Source: Patescibacteria group bacterium
GTDB taxonomy: Bacteria; Patescibacteriota; Patescibacteriia; PEXW01
Length of the DNA: 64,000 bases
Assembly (NCBI GenBank): GCA_041665345.1
Contig: JBAYJA010000001.1
Span: 521,206 to 585,205 of the forward strand
Reading direction: 5' to 3'
How positions within the stretch are numbered: the first letter of the stretch is position 1; every line of letters starts with the position of its first letter. Position numbers and translations under genes: made by a program. Of this stretch, positions 1,946 to 59,711 are shown piece by piece. The notes beneath the pieces were generated by a model that did no database searches, had not been told where the DNA came from, and saw nothing but the letters and a program-made list of their open reading frames with translations.

Positions 1946-3844
1946 ATGATTCACTTCCTCACCCGCAAACTTGAAGGGATCCATCCAGCGCACCACTGGA
2001 CGTTTGGCATTGCCGGACTGGCGTCCATTGCCATTTTGGTCGTGCTCTTCATGGCAAGTCGGCCACCAGTACCATCGCTGACCGGTCTGCGCGAGAATGG
2101 CCTGTACCGCATTGATAGCCCACTGGAACTGGAGTTTGCCTGGCCTGTGGAGCGAAAGCTGGACGTAACGGTTTCACCTGCAGTGCAGCCGCAGATTTCC
2201 TACCACAATTTTCTCCAGCAACGGCATTTAGCCACGGATGCGGTGATAACTCCAGAGCATACCTGGCTACCAAACACCACGTACACGGTTGAAGTGAAAA
2301 ATGTCCGGCGGATGCTCTGGCCTTTTGGTGGACCAAAAACTTTCACTTTCACCTTTACTACACAAGCACTCCCAGCAGTCGCTGTGGTGCAGCCAGGATC
2401 GACGCAGGAAATTCCGGCTGATCAGCAGTGGGATGTGGTGCTGGACAGAGCAATTGATCGAGCGGCAACTTTTGAGGTGCAAACCGAGCCTGCGGGCGCA
2501 TTGACCGTCACCGCGCAAGCAGATCAACGTACCTTACACGTTCAACCGCAGCAACTGTTGACGCAGGGGCAACCGGTAACCTTGGTGGTGTCGCGAACGC
2601 CGCAGCAGTTCATTTTTGATTCTGACGTTGTGGCCAGCCAAGGCGAGCCTGAGGAAATCCATCGGTCGACGTATACCGTGCGTCAGCCACCTGGCCTTTC
2701 CGCCGTGCAACCACAAGGAGCTGGAGTAGCGCTCGCCTCGCCCGTACGGTTAACCTTTTCTGAGCCAGTTGCAGTTGCGGATGTTGAAAAAAATGTAGCA
2801 ATTGCGCCAAAGGTAACAGGGAACTGGTCGCAAGTTGATGCACAGACCGTGCAGTTTGCCCCAAGTGATCTTGTACAAGCAACAACGTACACCGTCAGTG
2901 TGCCCAAAGGTTTGAAAACCACCACAGGAGGATTTATTCCAGCCGAAGTCGTATCACAGTTCCGCACTATTGAACCAGTTGCAGTGACAGGGGTGAGTCC
3001 AGCACATGGGAGCGGTGGCGTCCGCGTCGGATCCAAGCTGCGCTACACCTTCAATCAAGTAGTGGACCATGCCAGTGCCGAAGCGCATTTCCGCATTACG
3101 CCAAAGGTGGAGGGGACTATGAGCTGGGCAGGGAATGTCTTATCATTTACACCCAAGACTGCATTGACGTTGGGTACAGCGTACAGCGTCACCTTGGGTT
3201 CTGGAATAACCAGCCCAGCGGGTTTGCCGTCAACGCAGGATGCAACGTACACCTTTTCCACCGAATTAGCCGTCACCCGCATTGCCGTGCCCTTCCACCG
3301 TCAGGAACGGAGTCTGAGTTGTGAAGCTGCTACTGCGGTTATGGCCCTGCGCTACTACAAGGTGTCTATTACCGAGAAAGCCATTATTGACGCGGTGGGT
3401 TTTGACCGAACGAAGAAACAGGGGAATGTTTGGGGAAACCCGCATGTAGCTTTTGTGGGAGACATTAATGGCCGGCAACCCAGCACTGGGTACGGTGTGT
3501 ACTGGCAACCTATTGCAAAAGCTATTAGTGCGTACCGGCCAGCACGGTGGTTTACGGGTTGGTCCCTGCGGCAACTGCTTACTGAAGTGGAAGCCGGGCA
3601 TCCAGTGATTGTCTGGGGTACAGCTGGGTCTGGGAAGCGGATTGACTGGAAAACCCCAAGCGGCGGGAACGTGGTGGCCGTGATGGGGGAGCACGTCTTC
3701 GTGGTCATGGGCTACATAGGCTCCATTGATAACCCTCAGGTCATCATCACCCAAGATCCGCTCTCTGGTGAGCACCGGTTTACCAAGGCGTCGTTCCTGT
3801 GGAATTGGGGCGTGTTGGGGAACAGCGGGGTCGTGGTAGAGTGA
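1946..3844 (+). CDS. Membrane-anchored protein with Ig-like repeats and C-terminal C39-like cysteine peptidase domain
   Basis: N-terminal TM helix and repetitive beta-rich middle. The C-terminal segment (SCEAATAVMALRYY...GHPVIVWG...GEHVFVVMGY) resembles the peptidase_C39-like (YvpB-type) fold. Confidence 0.5.
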   Translation: MIHFLTRKLEGIHPAHHWTFGIAGLASIAILVVLFMASRPPVPSLTGLRENGLYRIDSPLELEFAWPVERKLDVTVSPAVQPQISYHNFLQQRHLATDAVITPEHTWLPNTTYTVEVKNVRRMLWPFGGPKTFTFTFTTQALPAVAVVQPGSTQEIPADQQWDVVLDRAIDRAATFEVQTEPAGALTVTAQADQRTLHVQPQQLLTQGQPVTLVVSRTPQQFIFDSDVVASQGEPEEIHRSTYTVRQPPGLSAVQPQGAGVALASPVRLTFSEPVAVADVEKNVAIAPKVTGNWSQVDAQTVQFAPSDLVQATTYTVSVPKGLKTTTGGFIPAEVVSQFRTIEPVAVTGVSPAHGSGGVRVGSKLRYTFNQVVDHASAEAHFRITPKVEGTMSWAGNVLSFTPKTALTLGTAYSVTLGSGITSPAGLPSTQDATYTFSTELAVTRIAVPFHRQERSLSCEAATAVMALRYYKVSITEKAIIDAVGFDRTKKQGNVWGNPHVAFVGDINGRQPSTGYGVYWQPIAKAISAYRPARWFTGWSLRQLLTEVEAGHPVIVWGTAGSGKRIDWKTPSGGNVVAVMGEHVFVVMGYIGSIDNPQVIITQDPLSGEHRFTKASFLWNWGVLGNSGVVVE

Positions 3845-23715: not shown

Positions 23716-24154
23716 TTGTAAAGCCATAGAGCGGTAAAGCTGTAGAGATCCTGGAAGCCTGCAACAATCTGTCATTGCGAGGAACGAGTCTTTCACCGCC
23801 TTGGCGGGACCCCGCTGCTGCGGTGGCGAGTGACGTGGCAATCCCGCTGTCATACGGAACCAAGATGACTCTCTGGCTCGTGACCAACAATCCACGCACC
23901 CTGGAGAGGGTGCTCTGGTTGTGCACCACCTTGTCACCTCCATTAGGGTTACCTCCCCTACCCCCTCCTTCGAAAGGGGGGGGGAGGAGTTTGTTTAAGT
24001 AAGCCATACCCCCCGTATCGAGATACGTTACACGGATGACGGCAATCGTTAAAGAATCAAGCAATTGTAACCCAACCTTTTACGAAATCCTATGCCCATT
24101 GCCGATACGGGTTGCGATACCGTTACCCGTATTCCATTCCTCCACCCCAGCCCT

Positions 24155-37977: not shown

Positions 37978-38289
37978 ATGACCAAACCAAAAATCTCCGG
38001 CGGTGTCGCCCACAAAATGCCCTTGGATTTGCAGAAAGCTCTGCTTGCTGACAAAGCTGCTTTGCATTTGTGGGAAGACATTACCCCGCTGGCCCGGAAT
38101 GAGTGGATTTGCTGGGTGGAATTTGTGAAGTCACCAGAGAAGCGGAAGGAGCATATTGTACGTGTGGTTTCCGAGCTTAAAGAGGGGATGCGCCGACCGT
38201 GCTGTTGGATTGGGTGTACGCACCGGAAAGATAAAAAAATAAGCCCATCAGTCAAAGGGATACTTTTGAAACGGGGATATAAAGTTTAG
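37978..38289 (+). CDS. YdeI/OmpD-associated family protein
   Basis: The LDLQKALLADKAALHLWEDITPLARNEWICWV pattern is typical of the YdeI-like bacteriocin-protection family. Confidence 0.55.
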   Translation: MTKPKISGGVAHKMPLDLQKALLADKAALHLWEDITPLARNEWICWVEFVKSPEKRKEHIVRVVSELKEGMRRPCCWIGCTHRKDKKISPSVKGILLKRGYKV

Positions 38290-38296
38290 GGGTATA

Positions 38297-38311
38297 CCCC
38301 CACACCAAATT
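38297..38311. repeat. Left 15-bp inverted repeat (cccccacaccaaatt)
   Basis: Perfect reverse complement of 38565-38579. Confidence 0.85.
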
Positions 38312-38566
38312 ATGTTTTATCTTTATATCTTAAAAAGTCACAAGGATAATAAGCTGTATATTGGATCAACGAATGACCTTCGACGACGCTTTAAGGAGCA
38401 CAATGAAGGTAAAGTCTTTTCGACGAAAAGCAGACGACCATTTGAGATCGTATACTATGAGGCATATAAGGCCGAAAAAGACGCGCGTCATAGAGAGGTA
38501 AATGTAAAATTACGTAGTCGTGCCTTTACGCAATTGAAGAAGCGAATTGGAAATAGTCTAGAGTAA
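38312..38566 (+). CDS. GIY-YIG nuclease family protein (UPF0213/YhbQ-like)
   Basis: FYLYILKS...LYIGSTNDLRRRFKEHNEG. AT-rich coding. Confidence 0.75.
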   Translation: MFYLYILKSHKDNKLYIGSTNDLRRRFKEHNEGKVFSTKSRRPFEIVYYEAYKAEKDARHREVNVKLRSRAFTQLKKRIGNSLE

Positions 38567-38579
38567 TTTGGTGTGGGGG
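38565..38579. repeat. Right 15-bp inverted repeat (aatttggtgtggggg)
   Basis: Overlaps the stop codon of the GIY-YIG gene. Confidence 0.85.
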
Positions 38580-38700
38580 CAAGCAGAAGTGGATTCTTGG
38601 GAAAAAGAAGTAATAAAGTTGCGGTGGAGAATAATAACCCCACTGAAATAGACAGGGTATATTTTGATTCCTAGGGGGCGTGTTCATTTTACCTGCACGC

Positions 38701-59450: not shown

Positions 59451-59711
59451 ATGTACGTCCTTTACGTTGTTCGGTGCGCAGACGCAACTCTGTACACCGG
59501 TATTACCGTAGACATTTCCCGCCGGATTACTGAGCATAATACCTCCAGCAAAGGCGCGCGGTACACACGCAGCAGACGGCCTGTGCGTTTGGTATATGTA
59601 AAGAAGTACCGAACGCGTTCCACGGCAACCAAGGCCGAATTGCAATTCAAGCAGCTTTCTCGCAATGAAAAGTTGCAGCTTATCAAGCAGGCAAAGCGAA
59701 AAGCAAAGTAG
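59451..59711 (+). CDS. GIY-YIG nuclease family protein (native-GC paralog)
   Basis: YVLYVVRC...LYTGITVDISRRITEHN. Confidence 0.75.
   Translation: MYVLYVVRCADATLYTGITVDISRRITEHNTSSKGARYTRSRRPVRLVYVKKYRTRSTATKAELQFKQLSRNEKLQLIKQAKRKAK

Follow-up and report, generated by a model that had tools for sequence, protein, structure and literature searches.

A GIY-YIG nuclease gene set between the arms of a perfect inverted repeat: a candidate minimal hairpin-ended mobile element in Patescibacteria

The nuclease cassette and its surroundings

The window (the whole 64-kb stretch of DNA analysed) contains a 283-bp cassette in which a nuclease gene is enclosed by a perfect 16-bp inverted repeat. The left arm, CCCCCACACCAAATTA (38297–38312, forward strand), has the A of the start codon as its final base, and the right arm, TAATTTGGTGTGGGGG (38564–38579, forward strand), includes the stop codon. 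The ORF that they enclose runs from ATG to TAA (38312–38566, forward strand) and encodes an 84-residue single-domain GIY-YIG nuclease, identified by Pfam family PF01541, the invariant residues and an AlphaFold2 model. A sequence-only reading had described the repeat as one of 15 bp: cccccacaccaaatt at 38297–38311 abuts the ATG at 38312, and its exact reverse complement aatttggtgtggggg at 38565–38579 overlaps the TAA at 38564–38566. The repeat is real and one base pair longer, since the first base of the start codon (A) also pairs with the first base of the stop codon (T). The arms are 100% complementary and lie 251 nt apart, and the pairing extends no further on either side.

The 15-mer occurs twice in the 64-kb window, both times as a cassette arm; further matches there with up to three mismatches are at chance level. 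No solo hairpin was found in the window, which holds one cassette copy and two arms in total. All 319 window ORFs of 60–400 residues were scored for a perfect inverted repeat around start and stop. The cassette ORF reaches 16 against 10 for the runner-up, with a mode of 5–6.

The gene directly upstream (37978–38289, forward strand) is a host gene of the OmdA/YdeI family (Pfam PF13376, E = 3.3e-14), supported by synteny with a diverged relative, L001. Its stop codon lies 22 nt before the nuclease ATG, making the gene a possible source of read-through transcription. It is also a paralogue of the disrupted target. Alignment with L001 shows that the cassette is flanked by the remnants of a second, partial OmdA copy, gggtata on the 5′ side (38290–38296, forward strand) and the 3′ end of the same copy (38580–38616, forward strand, ...SQKWILGKKK*).

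The G-run of the flank, four nucleotides and the first Cs of the left arm form a small palindrome, GGGGTATACCCC, at 38289–38300. By eye, and uncounted, a GG-NNNN-CC junction was also noticed at several other element ends (GGTTTACC, GGTAAACC and GGATAACC).

The cassette protein matches PF01541 with E = 2.7e-17 over residues 1–71. Residues Y5, Y16, G18, R26, H30 and E62 are invariant in the alignment of the family. The AlphaFold2 model (pLDDT 96.4) is one compact GIY-YIG domain, with UPF0213, Slx1, I-TevI and UvrC as its best solved-structure matches. Neither Pfam nor the model gives a DNA-binding domain beyond the catalytic domain in the 84 residues. With L001 as the reference, dN/dS is 0.075, a ratio that indicates purifying selection on the ORF; all catalytic residues are intact, and the gene is still maintained. 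The ORF is not called as a gene in the four identical public assemblies of this genome, and such cassettes may thus be under-annotated.

As had been noted from the sequence, the ORF is AT-rich, with a GC content of 0.376 against a window mean of 0.502; 255-nt segments as AT-rich as this one amount to 3%. The second GIY-YIG gene noted at 59451 was likewise borne out. This ORF (59451–59711, Pfam E = 1.6e-16) has native GC and a KGARYTR motif, and shares 36–37% identity with the cassette protein. No bracketing repeat was found around it, and it looks like the UPF0213 type.

The cassette lies at the same place in L001, as judged by synteny, at a dS of about 0.9. Compared with L001, the window lacks 13 nt in a gap that directly abuts the left arm, and 49 nt within 2 nt of the right arm, where the first two flank bases are kept. 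These deletions account for the lack of a target duplication at the window copy (TATA against CAAG), and their position at or within 2 nt of the arm ends fits continued cutting at the ends. The comparison indicates that the cassette of the window inserted long ago, in an ancestor shared with L001, into a partial paralogue of OmdA. Of the signs envisaged in the sequence-only reading, no further 15-mer copy turned up in the 64-kb window, and no empty site in the four identical assemblies or in L001, which is occupied.

A domesticated gene would account just as well for the occupied orthologous site and the strong purifying selection. The nuclease would then be immobile with relic ends, its inverted repeat kept as a regulatory or recognition site, and would work for the host, perhaps as a cutter of incoming or replicating single-stranded DNA at hairpin sites. 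The sharing of the copy with L001 at that dS, the low dN/dS, and the single copy in 64 kb without target duplication all favor this explanation. It also has a precedent: domestication was proposed for Neisseria SsnA, with a role in controlling transformation (PMC11893778). However, with no other arm copy in 64 kb (of a genome of about 1 Mb), a nuclease in the service of the host would find few sites to cut here. The family as a whole also has the pattern of selfish spread, with GC below that of the host in 73 of 78 loci, a range across phyla and insertions into genes. We regard domestication as quite unlikely.

Arms, gene-less hairpins and insertion sites across the family

A total of 631 word-sharing homologues was collected, the best 120 of which show 72–92% identity and are mostly exactly 84 residues long. 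The hosts include Patescibacteria, Cloacimonadota, Margulisbacteria, Omnitrophota and others. At E ≤ 1e-10 there are 977 cluster representatives (50% identity). A bracket with the same core, CCCCCACACC...GGTGTGGGGG, surrounds the ORF in at least 54 of 80 homologous loci, where the terminal inverted repeat is 12–23 bp long. This recurrence and the 319-ORF control rule out a coincidence or a peculiarity of one locus. In most of the family, the right arm either covers part of the stop codon or lies directly beside it. The gene usually lies inside one split hairpin; a minority of loci (L007, L014) have a layout of two complete hairpins. The GC of the ORF is lower than that of the flanks in 73 of the 78 loci, which suggests a foreign composition.

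The 13-bp core helix is 99.1% paired, with changes on both sides at 10 of the 13 pairs. None of 500 shuffles reached this pairing, and slid controls are 42–51% paired. The arms are identical even between copies whose synonymous sites are saturated (pS 0.82–0.95). On this evidence arm pairing is under selection. Arm class (CCCCC or CCCGC) agrees with that of the nearest protein neighbour in 60 of 61 cases, where about 40 would be expected, indicating that nuclease clade co-varies with arm type.

A conserved stem could act in RNA. The arms would pair in the transcript and sequester the start and stop codons, either repressing translation or forming a stem for RNase III-type processing, by which the nuclease mRNA is released or stabilised; such processing would trim the insertion from host transcripts, much as happens to rRNA intervening sequences. 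The RNA fold suggested earlier does find such a stem: RNA and DNA folds of 38280–38595 both close with 16–17 bp, the RNA at a minimum free energy of -77.3 kcal/mol (z = -2.1). In the window the A of the ATG is part of the arm, a Shine-Dalgarno sequence would not fit, and read-through transcripts from OmdA would contain both arms. The covariation suits any nucleic-acid stem, and the three loci with arm-bracketed tRNA genes described below can be read in the same way. GIY-YIG ORFs have also been reported from insertions in CPR rRNA that belong to neither the group I nor the group II introns (PMC11270868), a finding counted for this explanation. An RNA-level role is therefore possible for the window copy, whose left arm abuts the ATG.

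The family argues otherwise. Of the 26 members with 15 nt or more between left arm and ATG, 18 have a TATAAT box downstream of the arm core that ends 4–12 nt before the ATG, so that a leaderless transcript of their own would lack the left arm. No Rfam family matches the site at the gathering threshold or at E ≤ 1. None of the 80 loci lies inside an rRNA gene, and no rRNA match was found in the window or in any of these loci. The gene-less palindromes of 27 nt with 4-bp duplications and the interrupted genes are DNA-level events that an RNA stem leaves unexplained. We therefore consider the RNA-level explanation unlikely. The long-range stem that the sequence-only reading offered as an alternative is thus retained in part. 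Arm pairing is what is conserved, and the TATAAT box between the distal left arm and the ATG in those 18 loci makes pairing in single-stranded DNA, not in mRNA, most likely. Separately, an rRNA intervening sequence with an internal ORF, for which a stem is predicted, is ruled out by the lack of any cassette in an rRNA gene among the 80 loci.

The same arms also occur without the gene, as palindromic hairpin elements of 26–164 nt, the smallest of which are near-perfect palindromes of 26–28 nt. The 434 kb of loci contain 148 arm cores, with about 2 expected, and 24 solo left-right hairpins. Another 30 solo elements came from metagenome contigs. The metagenome scan with the 15-mer gave a GIY-YIG match in none of 119 loci; about three quarters of its matches have no partner arm and are probably chance occurrences. 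The arms enclose other cargo as well, namely inserts of 50–140 nt and, in three metagenome loci, tRNA genes; no tRNA gene was found in the window. A simple model of a nuclease plus its own ends does not foresee arm-bracketed tRNA genes, and these count against the explanation preferred below.

Exact 4-nt direct repeats surround 20 of 54 cassettes (permutation mean 2.4, maximum 9) and 17 of the 30 metagenome solo elements (mean 2.3, maximum 7). The duplicated sequences are varied and mostly A/T-rich, and about half of the elements have no exact 4-nt duplication. That the four flanking nucleotides merely extend the inverted repeat is ruled out, as they are 57% paired and match exactly in inverted orientation in 1 of 54. 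Many elements lie in tandem or adjacent to each other, a placement that can mimic duplications. The gene-interrupting and tRNA-end cases speak against such mimicry as the full explanation.

Two interruptions were accepted after inspection and Pfam checks, those in L003 and L063. The L003 cassette splits an OmdA ORF at ...GAT TTA | TTTA CGA...; removal in silico of the element and one TTTA restores the ORF, and the Pfam OmdA match (E = 2e-19) then spans the junction. The second cassette in L063 splits an ORF6N-domain ORF, which is restored in silico when the element and one repeat are taken out. An automatic search for ORFs restored by excision was too noisy, because stop-to-stop frames cross junctions by chance. 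Insertion sites are diverse, comprising OmdA, ORF6N, the ends of tRNA, tmRNA and RNase P RNA genes, and intergenic DNA.

These sites bear on the homing affinity that had been suggested for the nuclease. A classical free-standing homing endonuclease cassette would be copied into one cognate site by double-strand-break repair. The protein is distantly similar to the catalytic domain of I-TevI (1mk0/1ln0) and, with E = 5.8e-6, to the group I intron endonuclease model TIGR01453, a match below cut-off (31 residues, 26.5 bits against 56); the ORF is also richer in AT than its host. However, the protein is a bare catalytic domain of 84 residues without a DNA-binding domain, the insertion sites are many and unrelated, and neither target duplications nor gene-less copies are products of homing. 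The suggestion is not supported, and homing is very improbable.

A probable hairpin-ended element and its possible mode of movement

Recurrent arms, gene-less copies, 4-nt duplications and split genes together point to a hairpin-ended, IS-like element. The window cassette is probably a copy of a minimal element of this kind, with the GIY-YIG nuclease as its only gene. The two ends of the element would be the halves of one long hairpin (core CCCCCACACC / GGTGTGGGGG), the loop of which carries the nuclease gene. The miniature mobile cassette proposed from the window sequence thus stands at the level of the family, where the bracket in at least 54 of the 80 loci, the gene-less copies, the 4-bp duplications and two split genes support it. 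It does not stand for present mobility of the window copy, which has no duplication, is single in 64 kb and has an occupied counterpart in L001. Taken literally, a repeat confined to this locus in the window and an occupied orthologue favor a structural stem, as the same reading had reasoned; the wider family comparison overrides that outcome.

Terminal inverted repeats, a duplication of fixed length (4 bp) and abundant short gene-less derivatives are also the classical signature of DDE transposons and their MITEs. The arms might then be the ends of a conventional (e.g., DDE) transposon, the hairpins its MITEs, and the GIY-YIG gene a passenger. The ability of the arms to hold tRNA genes and 50–140-nt inserts suits a passenger, and we know of no GIY-YIG transposase in prokaryotes. 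Yet in those loci that were looked at closely, no transposase ORF was seen inside the arms or next to them. The gene is, moreover, built into the ends, with its stop codon in the right arm and its start codon or -35 region in the left. Nuclease clade and arm type go together in 60 of 61 cases, DDE terminal repeats do not need near-perfect complementarity with compensatory changes, and there is the precedent of the Ssn nucleases, relatives of this protein that recognise their flanking hairpins. A passenger gene in a MITE seems rather unlikely.

The cassette contains no transposase of a known class (DDE, HUH, serine, tyrosine or Cas1); its sole ORF is the GIY-YIG gene. GIY-YIG nucleases form no covalent DNA intermediate, a point against the preferred hairpin-ended element. 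For this element, the manner of movement can be modelled on the experimentally characterised Ssn nucleases, single-domain GIY-YIG proteins that recognise a hairpin repeat in single-stranded DNA and cleave immediately 5′ to it (PMC11893778). By analogy, the cassette nuclease probably recognises the paired arms in single-stranded DNA. The arms would be bound while the DNA is single-stranded, during replication, repair or uptake, and the nick would fall at the foot of the stem, which is the element boundary. Excision, and insertion at a target break with a 4-nt stagger, would be completed by host repair and ligation, and gene-less hairpins would be mobilised in trans. Both the single-strand specificity and the cleavage site are extrapolated from proteins that are 30–36% identical to the cassette protein.

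A bolder form of this model is possible, and we put it forward tentatively. The cassettes (about 285–320 bp) would be autonomous transposable elements, the smallest known in bacteria, whose nuclease represents a new catalytic class of prokaryotic transposase. They would move as stem-closed single strands, generate 4-bp duplications, and mobilise the 27-nt palindromes and the tRNA-carrying derivatives in trans. If the nuclease drives movement, this would answer a question left open by the Ssn paper (2025, PMC11893778) and by a 2013 survey of CGTC-tagged REPs, namely whether the "transposases" that palindromic repeat families lack are small GIY-YIG proteins. The cassettes would then provide a concrete, testable system of less than 300 bp, in which the ends and the 4-bp duplication are defined and non-autonomous partners occur naturally. 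They would also carry the Ssn concept, with a new recognition sequence, into Patescibacteria and further uncultivated phyla, which is of practical interest because Ssn enzymes are under development as sequence-specific cutters of single-stranded DNA.

Comparison with known systems

GIY-YIG homing endonucleases (I-TevI, the Seg proteins) resemble the cassette nuclease in the catalytic domain and in having a gene that is AT-rich relative to the host. Homing enzymes have a long DNA-binding domain and one cognate site, and produce no duplication and no gene-less hairpins. The cassette protein, in contrast, has one domain of 84 residues, and its sites are diverse. Stand-alone GIY-YIG proteins of the UPF0213/YhbQ/YazA type (PDB 1zg2, 1ywl) are similar in size and fold and are the best solved-structure matches. 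To our knowledge, UPF0213 proteins are encoded by ordinary chromosomal genes for which flanking repeats are undescribed. A tblastn search of plasmids returned YazA/UPF0213-type matches only, at 33–41% identity.

Bacterial MITEs such as the Correia elements share with the cassette family the terminal inverted repeats, a short duplication of fixed length, a size of tens to a few hundred base pairs, and insertion within or next to genes. MITEs are deletion derivatives of transposase-encoding IS, whereas the sole gene associated with the cassette arms is a GIY-YIG nuclease gene integrated into the ends.

The IS200/IS605 "peel-and-paste" elements are also very small, with hairpin-defined ends that are recognised in single-stranded DNA, and with an end-adjacent tetranucleotide that matters. 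Each of their ends has subterminal hairpins that are not identical; they use a Y1 transposase and make no target duplication. In the cassette, by contrast, the ends pair mutually, the enzyme is unrelated, and in the family duplications are present.

The REP/BIME repeats and their RAYTs show the same arrangement of a nuclease gene flanked by short palindromic repeats that it supposedly disperses, with one gene copy, many gene-less hairpins, and hairpin recognition in single-stranded DNA. RAYTs are HUH/Y1 enzymes that form covalent intermediates, and REPs carry a GTAG tag and make no target duplication. The cassette family differs in its GIY-YIG enzyme, in arms with neither a GTAG nor a CGTC tag, and in its 4-bp duplication.

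Among described systems, the Ssn nucleases with their hairpin repeats, published in 2025, come closest in design. Its hairpin repeats (NTS/SRM; CGTC-tagged REPs) flank the ssn genes in an architecture noted as IS-like (Chenal et al., Nat Commun 2025, PMC11893778), and the analogy with REP/RAYT was drawn by its authors (PMC11893778). A scan of viral contigs for NTS gave six GIY-YIG ORFs on NTS-bearing contigs, with L132 and L155 as verified examples of the canonical NTS(+)-ssn-NTS(-) layout. Five of the six proteins were compared with the cassette protein and show 30–36% identity (blastp E 1.5e-11 to 5e-9 in a 5-sequence database), which is no closer than the cassette protein is to UPF0213 (1zg2, 35%) or to the second GIY-YIG protein of the window.

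The repeats of the two systems differ. The cassette core CCCCCACACC has no CGTC tag. The SRM pattern HGTCWYN(0-2)YYVSBRHN(0-5)WNVSBRGN(0-2)RNCYNB matches the window once, at 23787 (shuffle mean 0.48), and the 434 kb of related loci twice, in no case beside a nuclease gene. The cassette gene usually lies within one split hairpin (arm-gene-arm), whereas the ssn gene lies between two complete hairpins. The cassette family shows 4-bp duplications and gene interruptions; the words "duplication" and "target site" do not occur in the Ssn paper (PMC11893778). The cassettes occur mainly in Patescibacteria, a group that goes unmentioned in that paper (PMC11893778). What the two systems share is a single-domain GIY-YIG protein of fewer than 100 residues, 84 and without an extra domain in the cassette, and inverted, hairpin-forming flanking repeats, which at the level of the cassette family recur elsewhere in the genomes and co-vary with the nuclease.

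The bracketed nuclease gene

The ORF at 38312–38566 encodes an 84-residue protein whose GIY-YIG identity, proposed from sequence alone, is borne out by a Pfam match (E = 2.7e-17). Its AlphaFold2 model (pLDDT 96.4) matches the catalytic domains of UPF0213, Slx1, I-TevI and UvrC in structure comparison. The gene lies in the context ...gtttaggggtata CCCCCACACCAAATTA TG...(84 codons)...gag TAATTTGGTGTGGGGG caagcag. The perfect repeat described in the sequence-only reading does bracket it, but is 16 bp long and not 15, since it includes the A of the ATG: 38297–38312 and 38564–38579 are fully complementary and separated by 251 nt, the innermost pair is formed by the A of ATG and the T of TAA, and there is no outward extension. 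The longest perfect inverted repeat around start and stop was scored for all window ORFs of 60–400 residues (n = 319); this ORF scored 16, the second 10, and the mode was 5–6. The 15-mer arm is absent elsewhere in the 64-kb window, where matches allowing 3 mismatches are about as frequent as expected by chance. The observation of a GIY-YIG gene bracketed by an inverted repeat is thus confirmed as a whole, and so is its AT-richness: the GC content of 0.376, against 0.502 for the window, is among the lowest 3% of 255-nt windows.

A second GIY-YIG ORF is present at 59451–59711, as had been noted. It encodes 86 residues with a KGARYTR motif, is 36–37% identical to the cassette protein, has no bracketing repeat and looks like an ordinary UPF0213/YhbQ/YazA type. 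Its sequence is visibly more GC-rich. Rfam families and tRNAs were not found in the window.

Arms as ends of mobile DNA

Close relatives of the cassette protein number in the hundreds; at E ≤ 1e-10 an exhaustive scan found 977 sequences, each representing a 50%-identity cluster. The 120 top relatives are 72–92% identical, mostly exactly 84 residues long, and come from Patescibacteria, Margulisbacteria, Cloacimonadota, Endomicrobiia and others. Y5, Y16, G18, R26, H30 and E62 are invariant residues. Many homologues of 230–370 residues (e.g. P0140, P0143, P0146, P0153, P0155) carry the cassette-type GIY-YIG at the N-terminus, followed by a C-terminal extension.

Relatives are encoded in 229 stretches of one-genome-per-species contigs, and the best 80 were compared. 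An inverted repeat of 12–23 bp with a common core brackets the ORF in at least 54 of these 80 loci, with the consensus (T-W-W-A)CCCCCACACC ... GGTGTGGGGG(T-W-W-A). The left arm lies 0–33 nt 5′ of the ATG; the right arm usually adjoins the stop codon or shares bases with it. When 50 distinct arm pairs are aligned, pairing in the 13-bp core helix amounts to 99.1%, and two-sided changes occur at 10 of the 13 pairs, e.g. CCCGCACAC/GTGTGCGGG and GCCCCTCACC/GGTGAGGGGC. This level was not reached in any of 500 shuffles, and structures slid by 1–3 columns were 42–51% paired. Identical arms occur in copies with saturated synonymous sites (pS 0.82–0.95), which together with the near-complete core pairing indicates that the arms are constrained in both sequence and complementarity. 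Arm type and protein clade go together: for 60 of 61 proteins the nearest neighbour shares the arm class (about 40 expected).

The comparison of loci indicates that the arms are the ends of mobile DNA. The arm core occurs 148 times in 434 kb of loci, where about 2 are expected, and forms 24 local arm-loop-arm elements of 27–146 nt, frequently adjoining the gene or in tandem. Scanning metagenomes with the 15-mer of the window yielded 119 loci, none of them with a GIY-YIG match; most 15-mer matches had no partner arm, but 30 further solo elements were recovered, mostly near-perfect palindromes of 26–28 nt, CCCCCACACCAAATTTTGGTGTGGGGG. When the 4 nt outside the C-run were compared with the 4 nt outside the G-run, exact direct repeats were found at 20 of 54 cassettes (2.4 on average and at most 9 in 2000 permutations) and, independently, at 17 of 30 solo elements (2.3 on average and at most 7 in 5000). 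The repeats vary by site (TTTA, TAAA, TTGA, CTTG, CACG, CAAA and others). In locus L003 the cassette splits an OmdA-family ORF, ...GAT TTA|cassette|TTTA CGA..., and in-silico excision of the element with one TTTA restores an 82-residue ORF, with a Pfam OmdA domain (E = 2e-19) running across the junction. In L063 an ORF6N-domain ORF is split by the second of two cassettes. ORF GC is lower than flank GC in 73 of 78 loci. At family level, the gene-less copies, 4-nt duplications and interrupted genes uphold the geometry of a mobile cassette that had been read from the window.

Several further features were observed. The 4-nt flanks were also considered as an inverted extension of the arms and rejected, with 57% of cells pairing. 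Gene callers merge a 17-codon OmdA N-terminus, the left arm (PPHQI) and the GIY-YIG ORF of L003 into 106 residues (2935–3255, P0010). The two L063 cassettes (780–1031 and 1491–1751) lie 460 nt apart with identical arms (ACCCCGCACCTTTTAAGCAT); this is the only one of the 80 loci with two gene copies. Solo elements of 109 nt (L007 1766–1874 and 2159–2267; L014 3305–3413) and about 136–138 nt (L035 605–742; L044 3327–3462; L049 1909–2044) are conserved across different genomes, with long internal stems and cargo.

The acceptor-stem end of stable RNA genes can be supplied by the G- or C-run of an arm. The right-arm G-run is the 5′ end of tRNA-Ala (L054 3262–3278), tRNA-Ser (L059 ~3259–3284) and tmRNA (L070 3265–3273), and the left-arm C-run overlaps the 3′ end of tRNA-Gly (L079 2974–2982), tRNA-His (L057 ~2956) and RNase P RNA (L021 2887–2895). 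The same arms also enclose tRNA genes in place of the nuclease gene: Arg-CCG, Pro-GGG and Gln-CTG (L241, arms at ~907 and ~1014; L289 5717–5826; L315 3591–3755). Outside the left arm of L289 there is a duplicate of 15 nt from the tRNA 3′ end (CGGGCTGCCGGGAAT), and another tRNA-Pro(GGG) is found at a distance of 70 nt. LOOT RNA and DUF3800-II RNA, matched by Rfam in cassette-bearing loci (L012 1414–1534; L045 5234–5297), are probably unrelated neighbours.

A long-range stem sequestering the start and stop had been offered as an alternative, and both RNA and DNA folding do predict the closing stem. In the window the left arm reaches the ATG and the preceding OmdA gene ends 22 nt before it, so read-through transcripts could form the stem and hide the start, and arm pairing may have a role in RNA for this copy. 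However, 18 of the 26 loci whose left arm is located 15 nt or more upstream contain a TATAAT box that ends 4–12 nt before the ATG, inside the element, so that the gene's own, probably leaderless, transcript would lack the left arm. This position, the duplications and the gene-less palindromes place the conserved pairing function at the DNA level.

History of the window copy

The window belongs to a 1,075,605-bp contig (ENA ERZ27249449), and 3 other assemblies with the same sequence are 100% identical over the cassette. The ORF is uncalled as a gene in all four, and its protein is absent from a 15-billion-protein collection that holds homologues of up to 92% identity. A syntenic Patescibacteria MAG locus, L001, shares OmdA and the cassette at 73.6% identity over 652 nt. 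The low dN/dS of 0.075 (dS ~0.9) between these copies and the invariant residues indicate that the ORF is maintained.

The cassette of L001 is embedded in a second, partial copy of OmdA (...GMRRPC | cassette | CCWIGCVHRRDKPLSRSQKYLIGKRKY*), where its flanks are CCTG/CGTG; in the window this copy is reduced to scraps. Compared with L001, the window lacks 13 nt immediately beside the left arm and a further 49 nt no more than 2 nt from the right arm, and because of these deletions it has no target duplication. Repeated end-cutting followed by resection would leave deletions that start ≤2 nt from both element ends. The mobile-cassette reading is partly supported for the window copy itself, a single, old copy with eroded flanks.

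The partial copy directly follows the full OmdA gene (L001 2965–3355; window 38290–38616). Candidate origins of this layout are tandem paralogues with adjacent deletion, or co-transfer of flanking target sequence. In L001 the first OmdA ORF, intact in other respects, contains a 34-nt GC-rich hairpin (2748–2781, cctgcccgcttgctgagctcgcgaggcagg...) that shifts the reading frame and introduces an in-frame TGA. This hairpin has no relation to the CCCCCACACC arms and may represent another kind of small palindromic element.

Proposed mechanism and known systems

Homing, which had also been suggested, is unsupported. We propose instead that the encoded nuclease would recognise the paired arms in single-stranded DNA and nick the element ends, and that insertion would occur at a 4-nt staggered break and be completed by host functions. 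The enzymology is proposed by analogy, the remaining parts from comparative evidence.

Literature searches for the cassette family found no description. A CPR study reports rRNA insertions that contain GIY-YIG ORFs and belong to neither the group I nor the group II introns (PMC11270868). These ORFs may be related to the cassette family, in which 0 of 80 loci have the cassette in rRNA. A 2013 survey of CGTC-tagged REPs concluded that these repeats have no dedicated transposase.

The closest described system is Ssn, single-domain GIY-YIG proteins (cd10448, ~94 residues) that bind NTS/SRM, a hairpin repeat, in single-stranded DNA and cleave immediately on its 5′ side (Chenal et al. 2025, PMC11893778). 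The ssn genes are flanked by NTS/SRM repeats, and the authors liken NTS-ssnA-NTS to an insertion sequence and draw the REP/RAYT analogy (PMC11893778). The terms "duplication" and "target site" and any mention of Patescibacteria are absent from that paper (PMC11893778). An NTS scan of viral contigs found a GIY-YIG ORF of ~100 residues between NTS and inverted NTS in two loci, L132 and L155. The cassette protein is 30–36% identical to NTS-flanked-type proteins from viral contigs, and is equally distant from Ssn-type proteins, UPF0213 and the GIY-YIG at 59451. The published SRM pattern is absent at cassette-family genes; its sole match in the window, at 23787–23814 (AGTCTTTCACCGCCTTGGCGGGACCCCG), is at chance level (shuffle mean 0.48).

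By analogy, the window element would work like an Ssn/SRM unit without demonstrably being a member of the Ssn family. It differs in its recognition sequence and in its split-hairpin layout with the gene in the loop, yet L007 and L014 have two complete flanking elements. The cassette family also differs in host range, and carries explicit transposon signatures.
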